DNA of 64,000 nucleotides from an uncultured Nitrospiraceae bacterium (GCA_963846575.1 CAWJWJ010000002.1:2688001-2752000); one strand, 5' to 3'; positions 945-37,488 are shown, counted from the first letter of the stretch. The notes: generated by a model not told the origin, from the sequence alone. Numbers and translations are program-made.

Positions 945-990
945 CTCGATACGGCCATGAACTTTGGCCGGCAAGTTGACCTCTCGCCCT

Positions 991-1220
991 GTGCCTTGGT
1001 TGAGTCGCTGACCGGGCTCGACGAGCGACTGGAGATCACTCAAACCGGCTACGGTTATCGAGAATATCCGACCCCACTTCCGAGCATCCTGGCAGAGCAT
1101 AAGGACAGGACGGATCAACCCTCCCTGCCCGATCTTGGGAACGCTGTTCCACGGCGGTCGCATTCCGCTGACGCCAGTAGTAAGGCCAGCAGGTACCTAT
1201 TATGAGTGTAAAGGTATGAG
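991..1220 (+). pseudogene. 3' remnant of a large serine recombinase (homolog of 30791-31080)
   Basis: Colinear DNA similarity to 30791-31024, e.g. tcgcattccgctgacgccagtag and aggtacctattatgagt; frameshifted. Confidence 0.7.
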
Positions 1221-1245
1221 GTTACAGGGACGGCCCCGGTCGGTT

Positions 1246-1737
1246 TCATTCACCGTACGTTTGCTCCGGCGTCCCGCCTTCCGTCGTGGGCGCATTCCGG
1301 CTGATGGCTTGCTTCGCCGTCTGAACGGCCACGCCTAGTTCCTCCGCTTCTTGCGCCGTCATGACTGCCTGGGTTTGGCGGAAGAGCGAATTTTCCTCGG
1401 CGGCAACATGAGTCTCGACGAGCTTGTGTAAGTCCTGGAATTTCGATACCCACCTATGGTCGTACACCGGAAATGTCTCCAGTTCATCCAGGAGAATTTT
1501 GATCCGGCGATGCGCTTCGAGGGCATCATGTGCCTCATCTCGTGTAGGCTCTGCCTGCTGGAAGACACGATAGACGTGCAAATCCTCCACGGCTGCGTGG
1601 AGGTCCAACTCACTCTTGAGTTGCCCGAACAACCGATGGCGTTCTGGCGAGTCAGGCTCTGCGAACCCGCGTTGGATTTGTTGAAACAGGGACGCGACGT
1701 GCTCGTGATCACGTCGCAAGAGTGTCACGAAATCCAT
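1246..1737 (-). CDS. Hemerythrin/HHE domain protein
   Basis: LRRDH...HAAVED...EAH...HVAAEE pattern. Confidence 0.85.
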   Translation of the reverse strand: MDFVTLLRRDHEHVASLFQQIQRGFAEPDSPERHRLFGQLKSELDLHAAVEDLHVYRVFQQAEPTRDEAHDALEAHRRIKILLDELETFPVYDHRWVSKFQDLHKLVETHVAAEENSLFRQTQAVMTAQEAEELGVAVQTAKQAISRNAPTTEGGTPEQTYGE

Positions 1738-29946: not shown

Positions 29947-30790
29947 TGCTCGAGTTGGGCCGCTCTAAGGCATGTCGGTAAATAAAAGGTGCCCCTCTTT
30001 CGGAATCGGGCGGTTTTCTTTAGAAGTTGTGCCAGTCGGTCGTACTTCCTTTTCAACATCGTTATTTTCTTCAGAATCGATTTAAATTTACTCCGGTCCT
30101 GGAACCCTGAGTACTGGAACAATCCCCAGCTCATAGAGATGCCAGCCCTCGACCTTACTCTCACGACCACTCAAGACATGGAGAGGAATTCACAGCACGA
30201 TTTCTCACGCCGCCGGATGAAAGTCTGTTCGTTCTTAAATGGCAACTGGAAGACAGGAGTCTGGTCCGCGAACGGGGGAGTCGATGATTCCGAGGTCGCC
30301 GTGTAGGTTCAAATGATTAGGGAAGGCTTGCTCCTGTTGCGGTGGGAGAGTCAGCTATCAGGTCTCTTAAGAAAGGTATCGCGGGGGGAAGGGGACGTTG
30401 GGATGAAAGCGACTGGTCCCTTGGTCACCGGAAACGAGCAAAGCGCCGCTTTGACGATCGAGTTGAATTCCCTCTCCAGACGGCCGGCGTTCCCCTCTGT
30501 CCGAACCTTGCGCGGGTGGCAGAACCTGGCATTGGCTCGACTCCTTTCAACTCCCGTCTGAGGCTGGTGACGAAGATAATCCCGCCGATGATGATAACGA
30601 GAAAACAGCTGTATACCGTGATGGATTGTACGGTGAGGGGGAAAAGTGAAGGAATGTTGTTGAGCAATGCCATGAAGTCCGGCATGCCGTCAGGAAATCA
30701 TACAGAAGAAGTGAAGTCAAGTAAGGGTGCCGGGGCCTTCTCATTGAGCGACAATACGACTGATTCTTCAAGCATGTCACGAGCGTAAAA

Positions 30791-31080
30791 GTGCCTTGCT
30801 TGAGGCGCTGACCGAGCTCGACGACCGCCAGGAGCCCGACCAAACCGATTACGCTGAATTGGGAAAAGACCTTCGAGCGCACTTCCGAACCTCATGGCAG
30901 ACCATCATGACGCGACAGATCAGCCCTACCCGTCAGATCCTCAGCAAGCTCTTCAACGGCAATCGCATTCCGCTGACGCCAGTAGAGGGGCCATTTAGGT
31001 ACCTATTATGAGTTTGAAGGGATGGCCTCGATCGGCCGGCTGCTGACTGGTCGTACAAAGGCTGTGGTGTCCCCAACGGT
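30791..31080 (+). pseudogene. 3' remnant of a large serine recombinase ending at the att repeat
   Basis: RQILSKLFNGNRIPLTP / YYEFEGMASIGRLLTGRTKAVVSPT; same architecture as the 37300-37488 C-terminus. Confidence 0.7.
31065..31079 (+). repeat. att direct repeat: copy of the tRNA-Glu 3' end
   Basis: tggtgtccccaacgg identical to 37467-37481. Confidence 0.85.
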
Positions 31081-31327
31081 ACCCGTCAAACCACGGAGCA
31101 ATCACTCAGTTTTTACATTGACCTGCTGGTCGAGGCAGCGTGAACCAGCAAGCCTTGCCCACATGCACCAGTAGCACTCTCCTTTCAGTGCCAACCGTCT
31201 CAGATTCTCTCTTCACATGGACGGCACCACCAGGTAGGATGACCCGAGGGGCCTATAAAAACATGAGACTCGGATAGTCCGAGAGGGCTCTTACGCCCCT
31301 CTCGGGAGCTGGCCCAAAGGAGGCTTT

Positions 31328-31576
31328 ATGATCGGTTGGATATTGTTTGGTCTGGTCGTCGGAATCGTCGCGAAATTGGTCATGCCTGGGAAGGACCCAG
31401 GGGGCTTCATTATTACCATCCTCTTGGGCATCGGTGGTGCATTGATAGGAGGCTATCTCGGCCGTTCGCTCGGCTGGTACGGGGAAAACGATCCGGTGGG
31501 CTTTATGATGGCAGTAGGCGGAGCCGTGCTTTTGTTGATTGGGTACAGGTACCTGCTCGCCCCCAAAGCAGCCTAA
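31328..31576 (+). CDS. GlsB/YeaQ/YmgE stress membrane protein
   Basis: WILFGLVVGIVAKLVMPGKDPGG...LGIGGALIGG. Confidence 0.9.
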   Translation: MIGWILFGLVVGIVAKLVMPGKDPGGFIITILLGIGGALIGGYLGRSLGWYGENDPVGFMMAVGGAVLLLIGYRYLLAPKAA

Positions 31577-31731
31577 TCGGACTGCCTCTTCACACCATAC
31601 ATTTAGCGTAGAGGAACACTGATACTCTGACGGGACCTTGAAAGGGCAGCTGAAAGTGACGGGCGACATCCGTTGCTCTCCGCCGATCGGCCACTCGCTA
31701 CTTGCCACTGTATCTGACTAGGGAGACAATC

Positions 31732-32121
31732 ATGTCAAAAAATGTCAAGACGGTGTCTACCCGTGATTACGAAGAAGTCGTTTCCACTGTCACAAAATAT
31801 GTCGAGGGGCTACGCATCGGCAGTGTCGAAAATGTCGCAGAGGCGTTCCATAAGGACGCTGTGATGTACGGCTTTACCGAAGGAAAGCTGCTGGGCGGCC
31901 CGATAACGAACCTCTACGACTTCGTCCAGAAGAACGGCACCGCGCCCGACATCAAGACGCGGCTGGACGTGCTCGCGATCACGCCAACAACCGCAGTGGT
32001 GCGCGTGGACATGGAGAAGGATGCGATCGGTGCCGACTACACCGACTTCCACACCCTCCTGAAGCTCGGCGACACCTGGCGCATCGTGGCTAAGGTGTAT
32101 CACATGTATGAACGTCTTTGA
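31732..32121 (+). CDS. NTF2-like (lumazine-binding-like) protein
   Basis: YVEG...AFHKDAVMYG...YTDFHTLLK....WRIVAKVY. Confidence 0.85.
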   Translation: MSKNVKTVSTRDYEEVVSTVTKYVEGLRIGSVENVAEAFHKDAVMYGFTEGKLLGGPITNLYDFVQKNGTAPDIKTRLDVLAITPTTAVVRVDMEKDAIGADYTDFHTLLKLGDTWRIVAKVYHMYERL

Positions 32122-32243
32122 CTGATGGTCAGATGGAATGGTTATACCACTGGATACGAACGCCTCTCGGAAACCCTGTCTGAGCCTTGAGAGGACGGAC
32201 GAAAGTGAAGAAAATCAACGAGATGACTCGTCCAAACCGTCCA

Positions 32244-32926
32244 ATGAGTGACAAGGGTTTACAACAAGTTACAGATTCCGTGTCCTATATAGGACACGCT
32301 CCTGAGCCTACCAGACTGACCCCCAAAGAAGAGGCGTTTTGCATCGCTGTGTTGTCGGGGCAAAATCCCTCTGACGCATATCGAGCTGCATATGCACCGC
32401 AGCGTGCGAAGGCCAAAACCATCCATGAAATGTCGTCACGCCTGATGGCGAAGCCCAAGGTTCGCGCAAGGATCGAGATGCTAATGCAGCCGGTGATTGA
32501 ACGAGCGCAACTGACCCGCGAAGAATGGTTGGGGGGGCTGGCGCGTATTTGTCTGGCCGATATACGCAAGATGTTCGACGATCACGGCAATCCCATCGCG
32601 ATCACCAAATTTACTGATAATGAAGCGGCGGCGATCGCAGGCTTCGAGGTATATAGTGATCGGGCACCAAGTAGAAACGTGTCGGAGGTAGGCGGCCGAA
32701 CGGTAAGAGTCAGGATGGTCGATCAATTGAAGGCGCTCGAAATGTATGGCAAGGCCATGGGGTACTTTGCGGAGCAGAATCACGGGTGTTACGGAGGGAC
32801 CCGCCGAACATCACGGTGGAATTTGTGGACCCCGCCGACCAGCTTCCGCATCTCGAACGGGAAATACCCATTCTTGACCAGACAAGGACCGTCGTCGCCG
32901 GTGGTGATACTGCACTTAGCTACTAA
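32244..32926 (+). pseudogene. Phage terminase small subunit, probable C-terminal frameshift
   Basis: LTPKEEAFC...SDAYRAAY...SRLM.KPKVRARI...ADIRKMFD...DQLKALEMYGK; NITVEFVD lies in another frame. Confidence 0.75.
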
Positions 32927-33386
32927 ACTATCGCTGCGTGGTTTCTACCGCAGGAGGGTTCGAGGCATTCACGACCTTGCGAGCGCCCCAGCGGAGCGGC
33001 TCAGGATCAGGATGCAGATCAATGCGAGGCGTGGAAAGAAGGACGAGGGGTGTATGAAGAGGTCCTCTGGGACGATCAGGGCCATGGTTCCACTCACGTT
33101 TTCCAACCCGTAGCGAAGCGTGCACGAGGTGCCGGTCCAGCACCTCGACGCTCGTATGCTGCCTTCCAACGTGCACGCCCAATTCTAGCCATCTGCCGAA
33201 GCGTACCCACATGAATGAATCCCTCTGATTTGGTGCCAGTCGCTGCTGACGGTGAGGTAGTGTAACCCTTTTCATGTGCCATGAATACCATTGGGCCAGC
33301 CTCCGCGCCTCATGGTGATGGCTTCGTGGGAGCGTTCACGGGTGCGTCGCTCGGGCCCCGGACCCTGGCATCCTGATGCGAGGCCT

Positions 33387-34760
33387 TCAGGCGACCCTCG
33401 CAGGGAGATCAGGTAGGCCTGCTGGGTCTCCCTTGAACATCGTCTCGCTTGATGACGGGGGACATGTCAGTCCGACGCCAGACGGGTGGCGTCCCTGCCG
33501 ACCGAAGCACGGGGCACGTCGGATCAATTCGGTCCCCGCTACGACGGCGAGCGCGCCAAGGCAGGTAGAGACGGTGACGGCCTCGCTCAACCACATATAG
33601 GCCAAGCCAATGGTGCAGATCGGAATGAGATTGTGGTACGCCCCCACCACGGCTGGCGAGAGCGATTGCAGCGCCCGAGAGCGCAACAAGAAGACCCCAG
33701 CGGTGGCGGTGCCGATGAAGAAGAGCAAGCCATACACCATAGCGGACAGATCACGCAGGGGGAACGTGCCGTGGGCCGCCTCGCCCGCCAGGAGGACGAA
33801 TGAGGCCGTGCCAAACATCATCGTATTTGCCGTCCAGACGCCCACTCGCTTGATGGTATTCGGACTCACCACGAGATAGCAGGACATCATCAACGTAAAC
33901 AGCAAGATCAGGACATCTCCCACGCCCCACCCCTTGCCTGAGACGGTGGGGCTGGCTAGGACGGCCAGCAGACAGCCAGCCCAAGACAGGAGCAGGCCAG
34001 TCACACTCGCGACAGTGGCGTGGTCCCTGCCACGCGCGATGCTCAGCATCGTCGTAAAGGTGGGCAGCAAGCTATAGATAATGGCGAAATGCGTGACGCT
34101 CGTATAGACCAGCCCCCACGCGGCGATGGGGTACCCGCCGACGCCCAGCAGTCCTAAGAGCGTCAGCTTTCCCACCTCGCGCGGGGTCAGCGATCGAAGA
34201 CCCGGTAAATCAAACCAGACCGTGATCCCCGCCAGAAACAGAAATCCAATGGCGACCCGGCTCGTCGCCAGTTCCAAAAAATCAACGGCACTATGCTGGA
34301 GCGTATATTTGATCGCTGGCGTAATGGCACTGACGAGCACGATCACGCCGCAGAGGCAAAGGAGGGGCACCAGGTGACTCACCGGATGCGACGTAATCCG
34401 AGGTGTCCTGTGTTGGGGCTCGTGATCCACCACGACCGTGTCCGTGATATTGACGGTGATTACATCCTCAATGAACTGCGAAAGCCGCGCCCGGTGTTCG
34501 GTCGACATGTCGACGATCTGTGTCCCCACGCCCGACGGATGAAGATGCGTCACAACCACGCGGCACTCGATGTTGTCGTGGGCACCCAGAGCACAGGTCA
34601 GGTGCACGACGTCGCCCACCAGGACGGACAGCGCGTCTGTCTGAAGACGGAATCCCTCTTCGGTAAAATCTAAGACCCGGCATTCCGTGGTGTGGCCATG
34701 ATCACTCACCAGACCGAGGCGTTCGATGGCGATCCGAGACTGATGACGCAGTGAGTGCAT
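33387..34760 (-). CDS. PilZ domain fused to EamA/DMT transporter
   Basis: RHQSR and DFTEEG motifs, then ~10 TM EamA repeats. Confidence 0.8.
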   Translation of the reverse strand: MHSLRHQSRIAIERLGLVSDHGHTTECRVLDFTEEGFRLQTDALSVLVGDVVHLTCALGAHDNIECRVVVTHLHPSGVGTQIVDMSTEHRARLSQFIEDVITVNITDTVVVDHEPQHRTPRITSHPVSHLVPLLCLCGVIVLVSAITPAIKYTLQHSAVDFLELATSRVAIGFLFLAGITVWFDLPGLRSLTPREVGKLTLLGLLGVGGYPIAAWGLVYTSVTHFAIIYSLLPTFTTMLSIARGRDHATVASVTGLLLSWAGCLLAVLASPTVSGKGWGVGDVLILLFTLMMSCYLVVSPNTIKRVGVWTANTMMFGTASFVLLAGEAAHGTFPLRDLSAMVYGLLFFIGTATAGVFLLRSRALQSLSPAVVGAYHNLIPICTIGLAYMWLSEAVTVSTCLGALAVVAGTELIRRAPCFGRQGRHPSGVGLTCPPSSSETMFKGDPAGLPDLPARVA

Positions 34761-35332
34761 CGTGTGGTTCCTTCATGGAGATTGGTCAACAAGGCATCGG
34801 CGTGGCCGATGTCGACTGTGTGAGCCCGGCTGTGGGGAAGAGGGTTACAAAGGGGGAGAGTCCGCCCTGGCGCCCGTCCGTCCGCAGTGGCGGTGTCCGT
34901 TACTGGGTCACCCTATCACGAGTCGACGAGGCGTCAAGCATCCTTCACATTCGCGCATCCGAACGGTTCAGATAGGGTCGCACAGGCCTTAATCGCCTCC
35001 GCGTCGGTGCACTCGTGCCGAATGGAATGGAGGAAGACCCTCGCGAGGTAAGAGTCGATGAGTGACAGGCGGCAGCAGTACAGACTGAGATTCCTATTCA
35101 TCTGCCCCCAATACTAGCTGGTGAGAAGTGCGGGAAGGATGGCGTGGCGACGACCGCCGTGGGAATTGCAGCCTTGACAGCAAGACAAGGGTCCGTTCTG
35201 GCGGGGGTCAGACGGTTGGCCGAGGACCACACTTGCCCCTCGGGCAATGTCTGCTACCTTTAATAGGTGTGTCGGCCACTCTAACTATGTAGTCCTAGTG
35301 CTCCGAACGTAATTAGTCAAACGAGGTTTCTT

Positions 35333-35752
35333 ATGAAGATGCACCCGATCGCGTTCGGAATGCTCTTTCTCGTGCTCTCTCAGGCAGGATGCTCGGTGTA
35401 TAAGGCTGCGTCTCAACCAGGGCCAGCAGATGTTACAGGAATAGGCGTAGGAACTCGGCGTACTGAGGTCATTACGCGCCTCGGCGCCCCAAAATTTTCT
35501 GACACCGATCCGAGCGGGCAGAAACAAGACACGTTCGAGTTTCAATCTGGGTTTCACCAGGCGTCAAAAGCGAGAGTGATCCTGTATCTCGCGGCCGATG
35601 TCTTTACTCTCTGTTTGGCCGAAATCATTCTCTGGCCGGTTGAACTCACGGTCATGGAGCGTGCAAGTTGTGTCGCGGTGGCTACCTACGACCCTACCCA
35701 GAAAGTAGAGTCCTTTGCCCTGACGCAGAAGGACGGAGTTCAGGGATGCTGA
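35333..35752 (+). CDS. Lipoprotein (SmpA/OmlA-like start)
   Basis: Lipobox QAGC; GTRRTEVITRLGAP. Confidence 0.7.
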   Translation: MKMHPIAFGMLFLVLSQAGCSVYKAASQPGPADVTGIGVGTRRTEVITRLGAPKFSDTDPSGQKQDTFEFQSGFHQASKARVILYLAADVFTLCLAEIILWPVELTVMERASCVAVATYDPTQKVESFALTQKDGVQGC

Positions 35753-36242
35753 ACAGTGATGAGTTTTTTGAAGTACGTCGTCAATATTTCTGAAGGCTCG
35801 CTCGAACATAGGGATGTCCTCAAGCCCAATAGCCACGTATGAGTCGGGCGGAGAATAGGCGTTTCGTTTCACAAAAAACCAGCCAACCAGTGGGGAACTA
35901 TGAGCGATATTCCTCACTTAGGAACCCACACGTTCGGGCTGGATGATGTTGGACTCACAATCACGTAAAAATCTTGCGACCCGCTGTACCAGGCAAGGTT
36001 GTGATTCACTCATCTCCGCCATGGCTGTGCACATCCAAGTTGCCTCCCCGTCTGTATTCTCTAACAACACGCCGATGTAACATAGTGTGTCAGCTTGTCA
36101 TTGAGCGGGAGCACTCATCTGCCTGACCCAGCCTGAGATACCAATAGGCAGCCGTCTCGGTCACCATTCAAAGTCCCGCCGCTCCGGTTGCCCGGGCAAT
36201 CAGTCGATGAACGCATAAGCGTACTTCAGGACAGGATTCTCC

Positions 36243-37488
36243 TTGGCGAATTTTGCCTCAGAGATGGAAAGAAAAAAAACCAAACAGCGCACGTATGACG
36301 CGATGTCTCGTAAGGCCCGTGCAGGGCACGTCACGGGCGGAAAAACCTATGGGTACGACAACAAGGAAGTGTCTGCTGCTGGGCGCCACCTGCACGTAGT
36401 GCGGATTGTCAACCATCAGGAAGCGGCGATCGTCTCTCAGATATTTGAGATGTATGCAGGCGGGCTTGGCATTTCACGCATTGCCAAGCGACTCAATGAG
36501 GAAGGCGTTCCTGCGCCCCGAAAAAGCCCACGAGGCTGGGCGCCAAGTGCGGTGCGCGAAATGGTGCGTCGGCCTATCTACAAAGGGGAGATCGTATGGA
36601 ACGAACTCCAAAAAATTGATCGAGGGGGCACCAAGAAACGCCGCCTTCGGGATGAGAAGGATTTGGTACGAGTGGACGCGCCTGACCTCCGCATTATCAC
36701 TCCTGAGTTATGGGAGAAGGTGCAGCGCCGTCTGACGAAGACTAAAGGAAAAGGTCGATGTCCCAAATAGGGATCAAGACTCCAAGTATCTGCTGACGGG
36801 CATGGCGCGTTGCGCGCATTGTGGTGGCCCGATGACTATCGTAGGAGCTGATTATCATCGACGGAAAGGTCGCTTTTACGGATGCAGTTATTACAAATCA
36901 CGCGGCTCATCAATTTGCGCCAACTCACTGCTGGTCGAGCAGGAGTTACTCGACCAGATCGTCCTGAAATCGATTGAAGAGGCACTTACAGAGGAAATGC
37001 TCAAGGTGGCTATTGAAAAGGCTCTGGCGAAACATCGGGCTCTGGCGAGCGACCAACTGGGGCATCGAACTAGGATCGAGCGGGAACTCTCACTCATTGA
37101 GGCTCACCTGAACAATTTGGTGGACTCCGTCGCTAACGGAAGAAAGGAGGCTTCCCTGTTCGAGCGGATCGCAAATGAGGAATCGCGGAAACGTACCTTG
37201 ATTGCAGAATTGGAACGTCTCACGCTTCTACAGCCAATTGCGTCCATCAGTGACGCTCGGCTCAAACGCGAACTGAAAGCCAAGTTCGCAGAGATGCGGG
37301 GAATTCTCGGGCGCCACATAACATCCGCAAGGCAACTGCTTCGCATTCTGATTCAAGAACCGCTGCGCTTGGAGGCCGTGCCGACCAAGGCAGGAAAGAA
37401 TTATCGCGTGATTGGCAGGGGGAGCTATCTGCCGGTTCTGACCGATTCTGCCCGCTCCGTGGTAAATGGTGTCCCCAACGGGATTTGA
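36243..37488 (+). pseudogene. Large serine recombinase/integrase lacking its catalytic N-terminus, frameshifted near 36765
   Basis: ASEMER...GGKTYGY...IAKRLN.EG...IITPELWEKVQ; YLLTGMARCAHCGG zinc ribbon; coiled coil. Confidence 0.9.

Follow-up and report, generated by a model that had tools for sequence, protein, structure and literature searches.

What becomes of a site-specific recombinase whose attachment (att) site lies within the last codons of its own gene? The question is raised by a 6.4-kb element with a serine integrase gene, inserted at tRNA-Glu(TTC) in a 64,000-nucleotide stretch from an uncultured Nitrospiraceae bacterium (GCA_963846575.1 CAWJWJ010000002.1:2688001-2752000; this whole stretch is called the window). 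Comparison with its relatives points to a real and selected exchange of C-terminal tails in a widespread integrase family, of which the window holds a dead copy. The parts of the element that take part in the exchange are the following.

31065..31079, + strand: far copy of the att core, a duplicated tRNA-Glu 3' end, at the left end of the 6.4-kb element
31080..31143, + strand: far att arm, coding for the detached 20-residue tail TRQTTEQSLSFYIDLLVEAA followed by a stop, in the frame starting at 31066
36237..36770, + strand: serine integrase pseudogene, piece 1, with the recombinase domain PF07508; N-terminal catalytic domain absent
36763..37488, + strand: serine integrase pseudogene, piece 2, in another frame, with the zinc ribbon PF13408, coiled coil and C-terminal hairpin
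37467..37481, + strand: near copy of the att core, within the last integrase codons
37467..37544, - strand: tRNA-Glu(TTC), the integration target

An initial annotation of this DNA had described a 15-bp core at 31065 and again at 37467-37481, inside the recombinase end, and both copies were located. They are the only two in the 4.2-Mb genome (31065 and 37467), also when 12-mers of the core were used as query, and a repeat by chance was ruled out by the uniqueness of the 15-mer pair. Identity does not extend beyond the core on either side. The near core is the 3' end of tRNA-Glu(TTC), and the recombinase open reading frame (ORF) at 36802-37488 terminates within the tRNA antisense as GVPNGI, one residue past GVPNG. 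When attP, the joint expected on the excised circle, was rebuilt in silico, the single tRNA-coded codon after GVPNG was replaced by 20 in-frame residues ending in LVEAA, with the stop at 31141-31143, which reproduces the continuation claimed earlier; the remaining two frames of the rebuilt arm have no AA ending. No circle joint between the two cores was found in four soil sequencing runs, whose low and patchy cover makes this uninformative. Among the runs listed as sharing sequence with the element, the DNA runs contain at most 14% of its words and there is no RNA run.

The integrase of the window is a relic, as had been proposed. Its two pieces align to residues 128-302 and 270-544 of an intact 544-residue homolog (P0001), and the window copy has no counterpart of residues 1-127, where intact homologs carry the catalytic resolvase domain PF00239. 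In addition, a frameshift near 36760-36800, not described before, separates the recombinase part from the zinc-ribbon part. The missing catalytic domain and the frameshift leave any switch in the window dead, and site-specific recombination by this element is implied only by its direct repeats and by stacked arrays. The enzyme is CcrB-like, with a score below the curated cut-off. A search of solved sequences gave a match confined to the catalytic domain, for the C-terminal part the ESM Atlas gave nothing but unnamed clusters, and the named relatives are from Nitrospira and Nitrospiraceae.

Does the arm at 31065 belong to this element? Two further recombinase remnants lie to its left.

about 30766..31064, + strand: 3' remnant of a second serine recombinase of another clade, frameshifted; it runs into the core as VSPT, in a frame other than that of the tail
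about 990..1280, + strand: third, more decayed recombinase 3' remnant with degenerate core-like sequence, in the same island stack

Since the second recombinase stub (80-86% DNA identity to a different integrase clade) adjoins it on the left, position 31065 is a junction between stacked elements and not a chromosomal boundary; neither this junction with an older element nor the stub near 990-1280 was part of the initial annotation. The far-arm tail was considered as a property of the left-hand stub, and this was ruled out: the frame of the stub does not fit, and tails of this type are found in the closest kin of the right-hand integrase. The three intact homologs nearest to that integrase have the same tail type in the same frame, and on these grounds the arm right of 31065 is assigned to the 6.4-kb unit. 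Of 9 flanks tested, 2 (the DNA adjoining tRNA-Glu in two relatives) have their match in this genome about 13.8 kb to the left of the window, which together with the stubs makes the 6.4-kb unit the innermost of an island stack. The stubs at 990-1280 and 30790-31064 show 75-77% DNA likeness with an abrupt onset near 990 and 30790, which suggests an old stub duplication; after the left stub come a degenerate core and a tail-like frame, now decayed, with FAV at its end.

Integrase homologs (E value of 1e-30 or better) were found in 64 of 251 genomes of the family, to which 79 metagenome loci (from the best 80 of 562 hits), 7 viral loci and 9 genome loci were added. Core copies were located by pattern among the matches listed, and arms were fetched from part of the multi-copy genomes. 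In most loci read, the gene end is the antisense of the 3' end of tRNA-Glu, tRNA-Ala, tRNA-Ser or transfer-messenger RNA (tmRNA), in any of the three frames, giving integrase endings by frame and target such as GVPNGI, WCPQRDLNP... and VSPTGFEPV..., with GGGQGS for Ala and tmRNA targets. As read from these sequences, the att core lies within the gene end at all four kinds of target, and the far arm codes for a tail in the integrase's own frame. Two of the seven IMG/VR loci lie at a called tRNA-Glu and two are cut by contig ends; in another, L046, an -AA ending lies away from any tRNA and the att core was not identified. No close relatives were found in phage and plasmid collections, where the best matches reach about 28-32%.

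How often does a far arm code for such a tail? By a strict rule, a peptide of 15-45 codons ending in -AA with chance core matches kept in the denominator, 56 of all 95 far arms do, as do 50 of 87 after de-duplication at 90% and 36 of 70 at 75%. At random genome positions the strict rule is satisfied in 0.8% of cases and a looser rule, discussed below, in 2.8%, and only 52 of the 3111 long ORFs of this genome end in AA. The -AA tail nearly always occurs in a single frame of the arm. The 37 other arms of the set of 87 comprise near misses (VA, GA, AV, AT, AD), frameshifted arms and unrelated sequence. In many cases the end of the tail carries a Shine-Dalgarno sequence and an ATGA overlap that opens a similar small ORF (MSTRLAL...), of which a decayed GTG version is left in the window at 31128-31143.

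The conserved portion of the tail is an amphipathic stretch of 12 residues that alternate as L/W, x, F/I, x, I/F, x, G/L/V, x, V, x, A, A, the hydrophobic residues at -12, -10, -8, -6 and -4 being kept along with the AA. At both Ala positions each of the four Ala codons is found, and each of the three stop codons is used. Within the last 12 codons of eight tails of the window's type, 150 differences fall at third positions, versus 66 and 60 at the others. This codon variation and third-position bias indicate that the tail is selected as a peptide, and the tail swap is almost certainly real and under selection.

The frame of the tail follows the frame of the integrase. Integrase ends were called with a hidden Markov model (HMM) trained on integrase ends, and 29 of the 55 elements bounded by a core on both sides have a callable end. 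The tail frame equals that of the element's own integrase in 24 of the 29, with three mismatches and two unscorable cases (20 of 23 under the strict -AA rule). For tRNA-Glu elements alone the match is 19 of 22 against a shuffled mean of 9.0, a test inflated by kinship. In an integrase tree of 23 members (26 were tried, three being too short), at least four frame changes are required, and the tail frame follows in 21 of 23; one tail type is common to very distant integrase bodies (L038 and the window's clade). Rebuilding attP in homologs, the check suggested in the initial annotation, thus gave tails in frame with their own integrase, narrow in length and strongly enriched in -AA. Variation in frame, which had been named there as a sign against a switch, does occur in the literal sense, but it goes together with the frame of the integrase, and length and ending stay constrained.

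Stacking allows a second comparison, in which the integrase of a neighbouring element reads into the arm. Such reading is in frame at only 4 of the 27 scorable junctions (43 in all), and at 3 of 24 after removal of three duplicates, versus a shuffled mean of 8.0 (p about 0.02). That stacks avoid rebuilding an in-frame tailed gene is only suggestive. At L157, L126, L148, L097, L100 and L061 the frame-0 arms resemble window-type frame-1 arms with 11 additional bases; a compensating shift of frame can be seen here in the sequence itself, at L157 as a short tandem duplication. In a 381-bp mini-element (L093, G201:C1:438941-439322), a tail arm is combined with an integrase 3' stub that shares its frame, on a contig with at least eight core copies.

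What might the tail do in the protein? AlphaFold2 was applied to P0058, a natural protein with a tail of this type, using a 76-row alignment. The model (mean predicted local distance difference test score, pLDDT, of 88) shows a coiled coil, a hairpin at 504-524, a low-confidence linker at 538-558 and a strand at 562-570 (pLDDT about 68), with the terminal two alanines outside this strand; the catalytic and DNA-binding domains lie ahead of the core and were modelled with high confidence apart from the tail. In its fold the model agrees with solved complexes of large serine integrases, including Bxb1 and phiC31. The last dozen residues of the tail are thus predicted to pair with the enzyme as a beta-strand, leaving both alanines free. 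Terminal Ala-Ala is described in the literature as the ClpX signal. The host genome contains two clpX genes over the cut-off and its tmRNA tag ends in ALAA, while SspB was not found in it with PF04386. The description of the tail as ssrA-like in the initial annotation holds for the last two residues only; upstream of them the tail keeps a conserved alternation of hydrophobic residues, which is a beta-strand in the model. A degron role of the tail is plausible.

The account towards which we lean, by a modest measure, is that the tail consists of a strand and a ClpXP-type Ala-Ala degron and is cut off by integration and restored on excision. Integration at the att core in the last integrase codons would remove the C-terminal tail, and excision would give it back. 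The circle would encode a complete yet short-lived integrase, subject to ClpXP-type turnover and sufficient for one pulse of integration, and the integrated gene would encode a tail-less enzyme, spared such turnover and probably different in activity. More tentatively, this could be a helper-free form of self-control, in which the beta-strand sets the direction of recombination, the Ala-Ala degron sets the lifetime, and the state of the DNA dictates both activity and half-life.

Several observations weigh against a degron that integration removes. The looser tail rule, satisfied by 63 of the 87 far arms, was fixed after the arms had been inspected. Three cognate tails are out of frame: G106:C5 (a weak call), G155 and L157 (a circular contig with a frameshifted gene). 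Of the 26 elements without a callable integrase end, 13 keep the tail (9 by the strict rule) with no open gene feeding it, which shows that arms can persist untranslated; several of these are similar cassettes, maybe of recent derivation, and in some a weak stub scores below the HMM threshold. The AA ending is not universal outside the window's group: among 107 distant full-length homologs, 16 have it, 54 terminate in tRNA-antisense text and 37 have other endings, and the in-frame tail of an Azospirillum homolog at tRNA-Met, 17 residues long, lacks AA. In the available part of an Escherichia coli degron screen, AA alone is insufficient, beta-branched residues at -4 are disfavoured and [LFYW]-[LAR]-L-A-A is favoured. 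Val, of the disfavoured class, stands at -4 in 36 of 51 tails. LVEAA fits the preferred motif at -5 only and Leu occurs at -3 in 11 of 51 tails, with the consensus of that screen possibly not being that of the host. A docked strand could also mask the C-terminus from ClpX. Finally, 24 of 51 tails overlap an ATG or GTG start, 11 of these with a Shine-Dalgarno sequence, and translational coupling may shape part of the pattern.

Could the tail be structural only? The strand would then complete the region after the coiled coil and set directionality as a built-in substitute for a directionality factor, with Ala-Ala as a mere small-residue end. This is the alternative that survives best, and we consider it possible but rather doubtful. 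It would explain why the hydrophobic alternation is conserved together with the AA, and it is consistent with the predicted pairing of the strand after the hairpin that follows the coiled coil, with the action of SPbeta integrase directionality factors at the coiled-coil base, as described in the available part of the source, with the altered site specificity after the Mx8 tail swap (PMC6070905, as far as available), and with the Azospirillum tail. However, the two terminal residues, which the model places beyond the strand, vary least of all while using every synonymous codon; the upstream pattern is loose in the 16 distant homologs ending in AA; and the sharing of one tail type by very distant integrase bodies fits a generic signal better than a co-evolved contact.

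Alternatively, the tail may be needed for folding or activity, such that integration turns the integrase off and full activity is confined to the circle, a mild version of the archaeal 'suicidal' integrases. Such a possibility is raised for dsiB in the available portions of PMC3146451, SSV-type integrases disrupt their own gene (PMC7253208, in part), and the shortage of stacked junctions that rebuild an in-frame tail points in the same direction. We regard it as improbable: all catalytic and DNA-binding domains precede the core and are confidently modelled apart from the tail, and the element stretches that were read, which cover some elements only in part, contain no other integrase, which would leave the elements without an enzyme of their own for excision. 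That the -AA is a by-product of translational coupling to the next gene (GGAGG with an ATGA overlap) or of DNA conservation of the att arm has the start-codon overlaps and the persistence of arms in integrase-less cassettes in its favour, but is very improbable and largely refuted, as 27 of the 51 tails have no overlap and 24 of 51 end in TAA or TAG, the Ala codons vary freely under a strong third-position bias, the AA lies about 60-75 bp from the core and outside the 40-50-bp sites of serine integrases (as given in partly available sources), and coupling leaves the frame match to a gene 0.4-38 kb away unexplained.

Which known systems come closest to an integrase with a detachable, degron-like tail? 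The initial annotation had pointed to mycobacteriophage BPs; the closest precedents in layout are instead Dehalococcoides dsiB and the int gene of myxophage Mx8, whose product is a tyrosine recombinase. The available portions of PMC3146451 describe stacked islands at ssrA in Dehalococcoides, with DsiB as a CcrB-like serine integrase of about 540 residues whose 3' end always overlaps the att site at the tmRNA 3' end, and suggest that DsiB may be fully functional only on the circle or beside an island supplying the 3' fragment. The window integrase likewise overlaps the att site at a tDNA 3' end with its own 3' end. In contrast, the C-termini of DsiB are called divergent with an unclear stop, and those portions contain no conserved tail, frame co-variation or -AA. 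DsiB targets ssrA with a six-gene module including DsiA (PMC3146451, same portions), whereas the window element targets tRNA-Glu, and neither a DsiA-like partner nor a six-gene integration module was found within 31065-37481; some relatives do target tmRNA. The targets of the window family include tRNA-Glu, -Ala and -Ser, and its likening to DsiB is by layout, by the partly available description and by the CcrB-like match.

In the accessible text of PMC6070905, attP of Mx8 lies inside int, and integration gives a new 3' end without killing the integrase, which is called a molecular switch; the effect reported there is on site specificity, with no degron mentioned. In BPs, integration splits the repressor gene at attP and removes a C-terminal proteolysis tag (PMC3694055, in part). 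The likeness is a gene split at attP that loses a C-terminal tail on integration, which in the present family is degron-like by its signature. The difference is that in BPs the repressor is split and the integrase bears a tag of its own before and after integration alike, whereas in the window the integrase itself is split and no repressor family or repressor-cro unit was found among the element ORFs scanned. The SSV-type archaeal integrases also have attP inside the gene and read the same att in alternative frames, with indels restoring the C-terminal frame (PMC7253208, available portions). Unlike the window family, these are tyrosine enzymes split into two fragments; in the serine family only the last approximately 20 residues, with a degron-like end, are exchanged. 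The layout has thus been published (DsiB, Mx8) and degron removal is known for the BPs repressor, but their combination was not found in print. A search made without most subscription journals or supplements gave no description of a serine integrase that exchanges a conserved, degron-like tail, and the available parts of the tycheposon and Integrase-On-Demand papers contain nothing on a swapped tail.

As a rule, a serine integrase requires a separate directionality factor, and a detachable tail would bear on how many islands control excision without one. The 2011 dsiB paper, in its available portions, left the meaning of the att-overlapping gene end unresolved, and frame co-variation and codon evidence now show a selected peptide. 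Since database copies carry the integrated, tRNA-coded end, enzyme screens for genome engineering may test only one of two natural forms. If the circle form does carry a degron, it would offer a compact self-limiting integration tool.

The remaining genes of the 6.4-kb element are as follows.

31328-31576, + strand: transglycosylase-associated protein
31702-32121, + strand: lumazine-binding-like protein
32187-33113, + strand: terminase small subunit-like protein, PF03592
33387-34760, - strand: PilZ-EamA protein
35333-35752, + strand: ORF with no Pfam match

The terminase small subunit-like gene hints at a phage-satellite origin. Outside the window, this genome has a second family member at tRNA-Ala(CGC), 28 kb long and frameshifted (G000:C2:434421-462835), whose far arm codes for an in-frame tail ending in IALAA. 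Stacks of integrase-less cassettes, possibly non-autonomous elements, were observed at tRNA-Glu in four genomes (L234 in G001, L235 in G040, L240 in G145 and L236 in G201); they share a conserved arm end of about 25 bp and a 10-bp palindrome just ahead of the core, and their far arms still code for -AA tails. Two loci, L023 (G191:C217) and L045 (IMG/VR), have the core in the opposite orientation to the integrase, whose gene runs into the 3' end of the tRNA in the sense direction, and this suggests occasional inverted recombination. At L127 (G175:C85), a tRNA-Ala-type core and arm lie within 100 bp after a tRNA-Glu-type arm, indicating that elements of different targets can stack.

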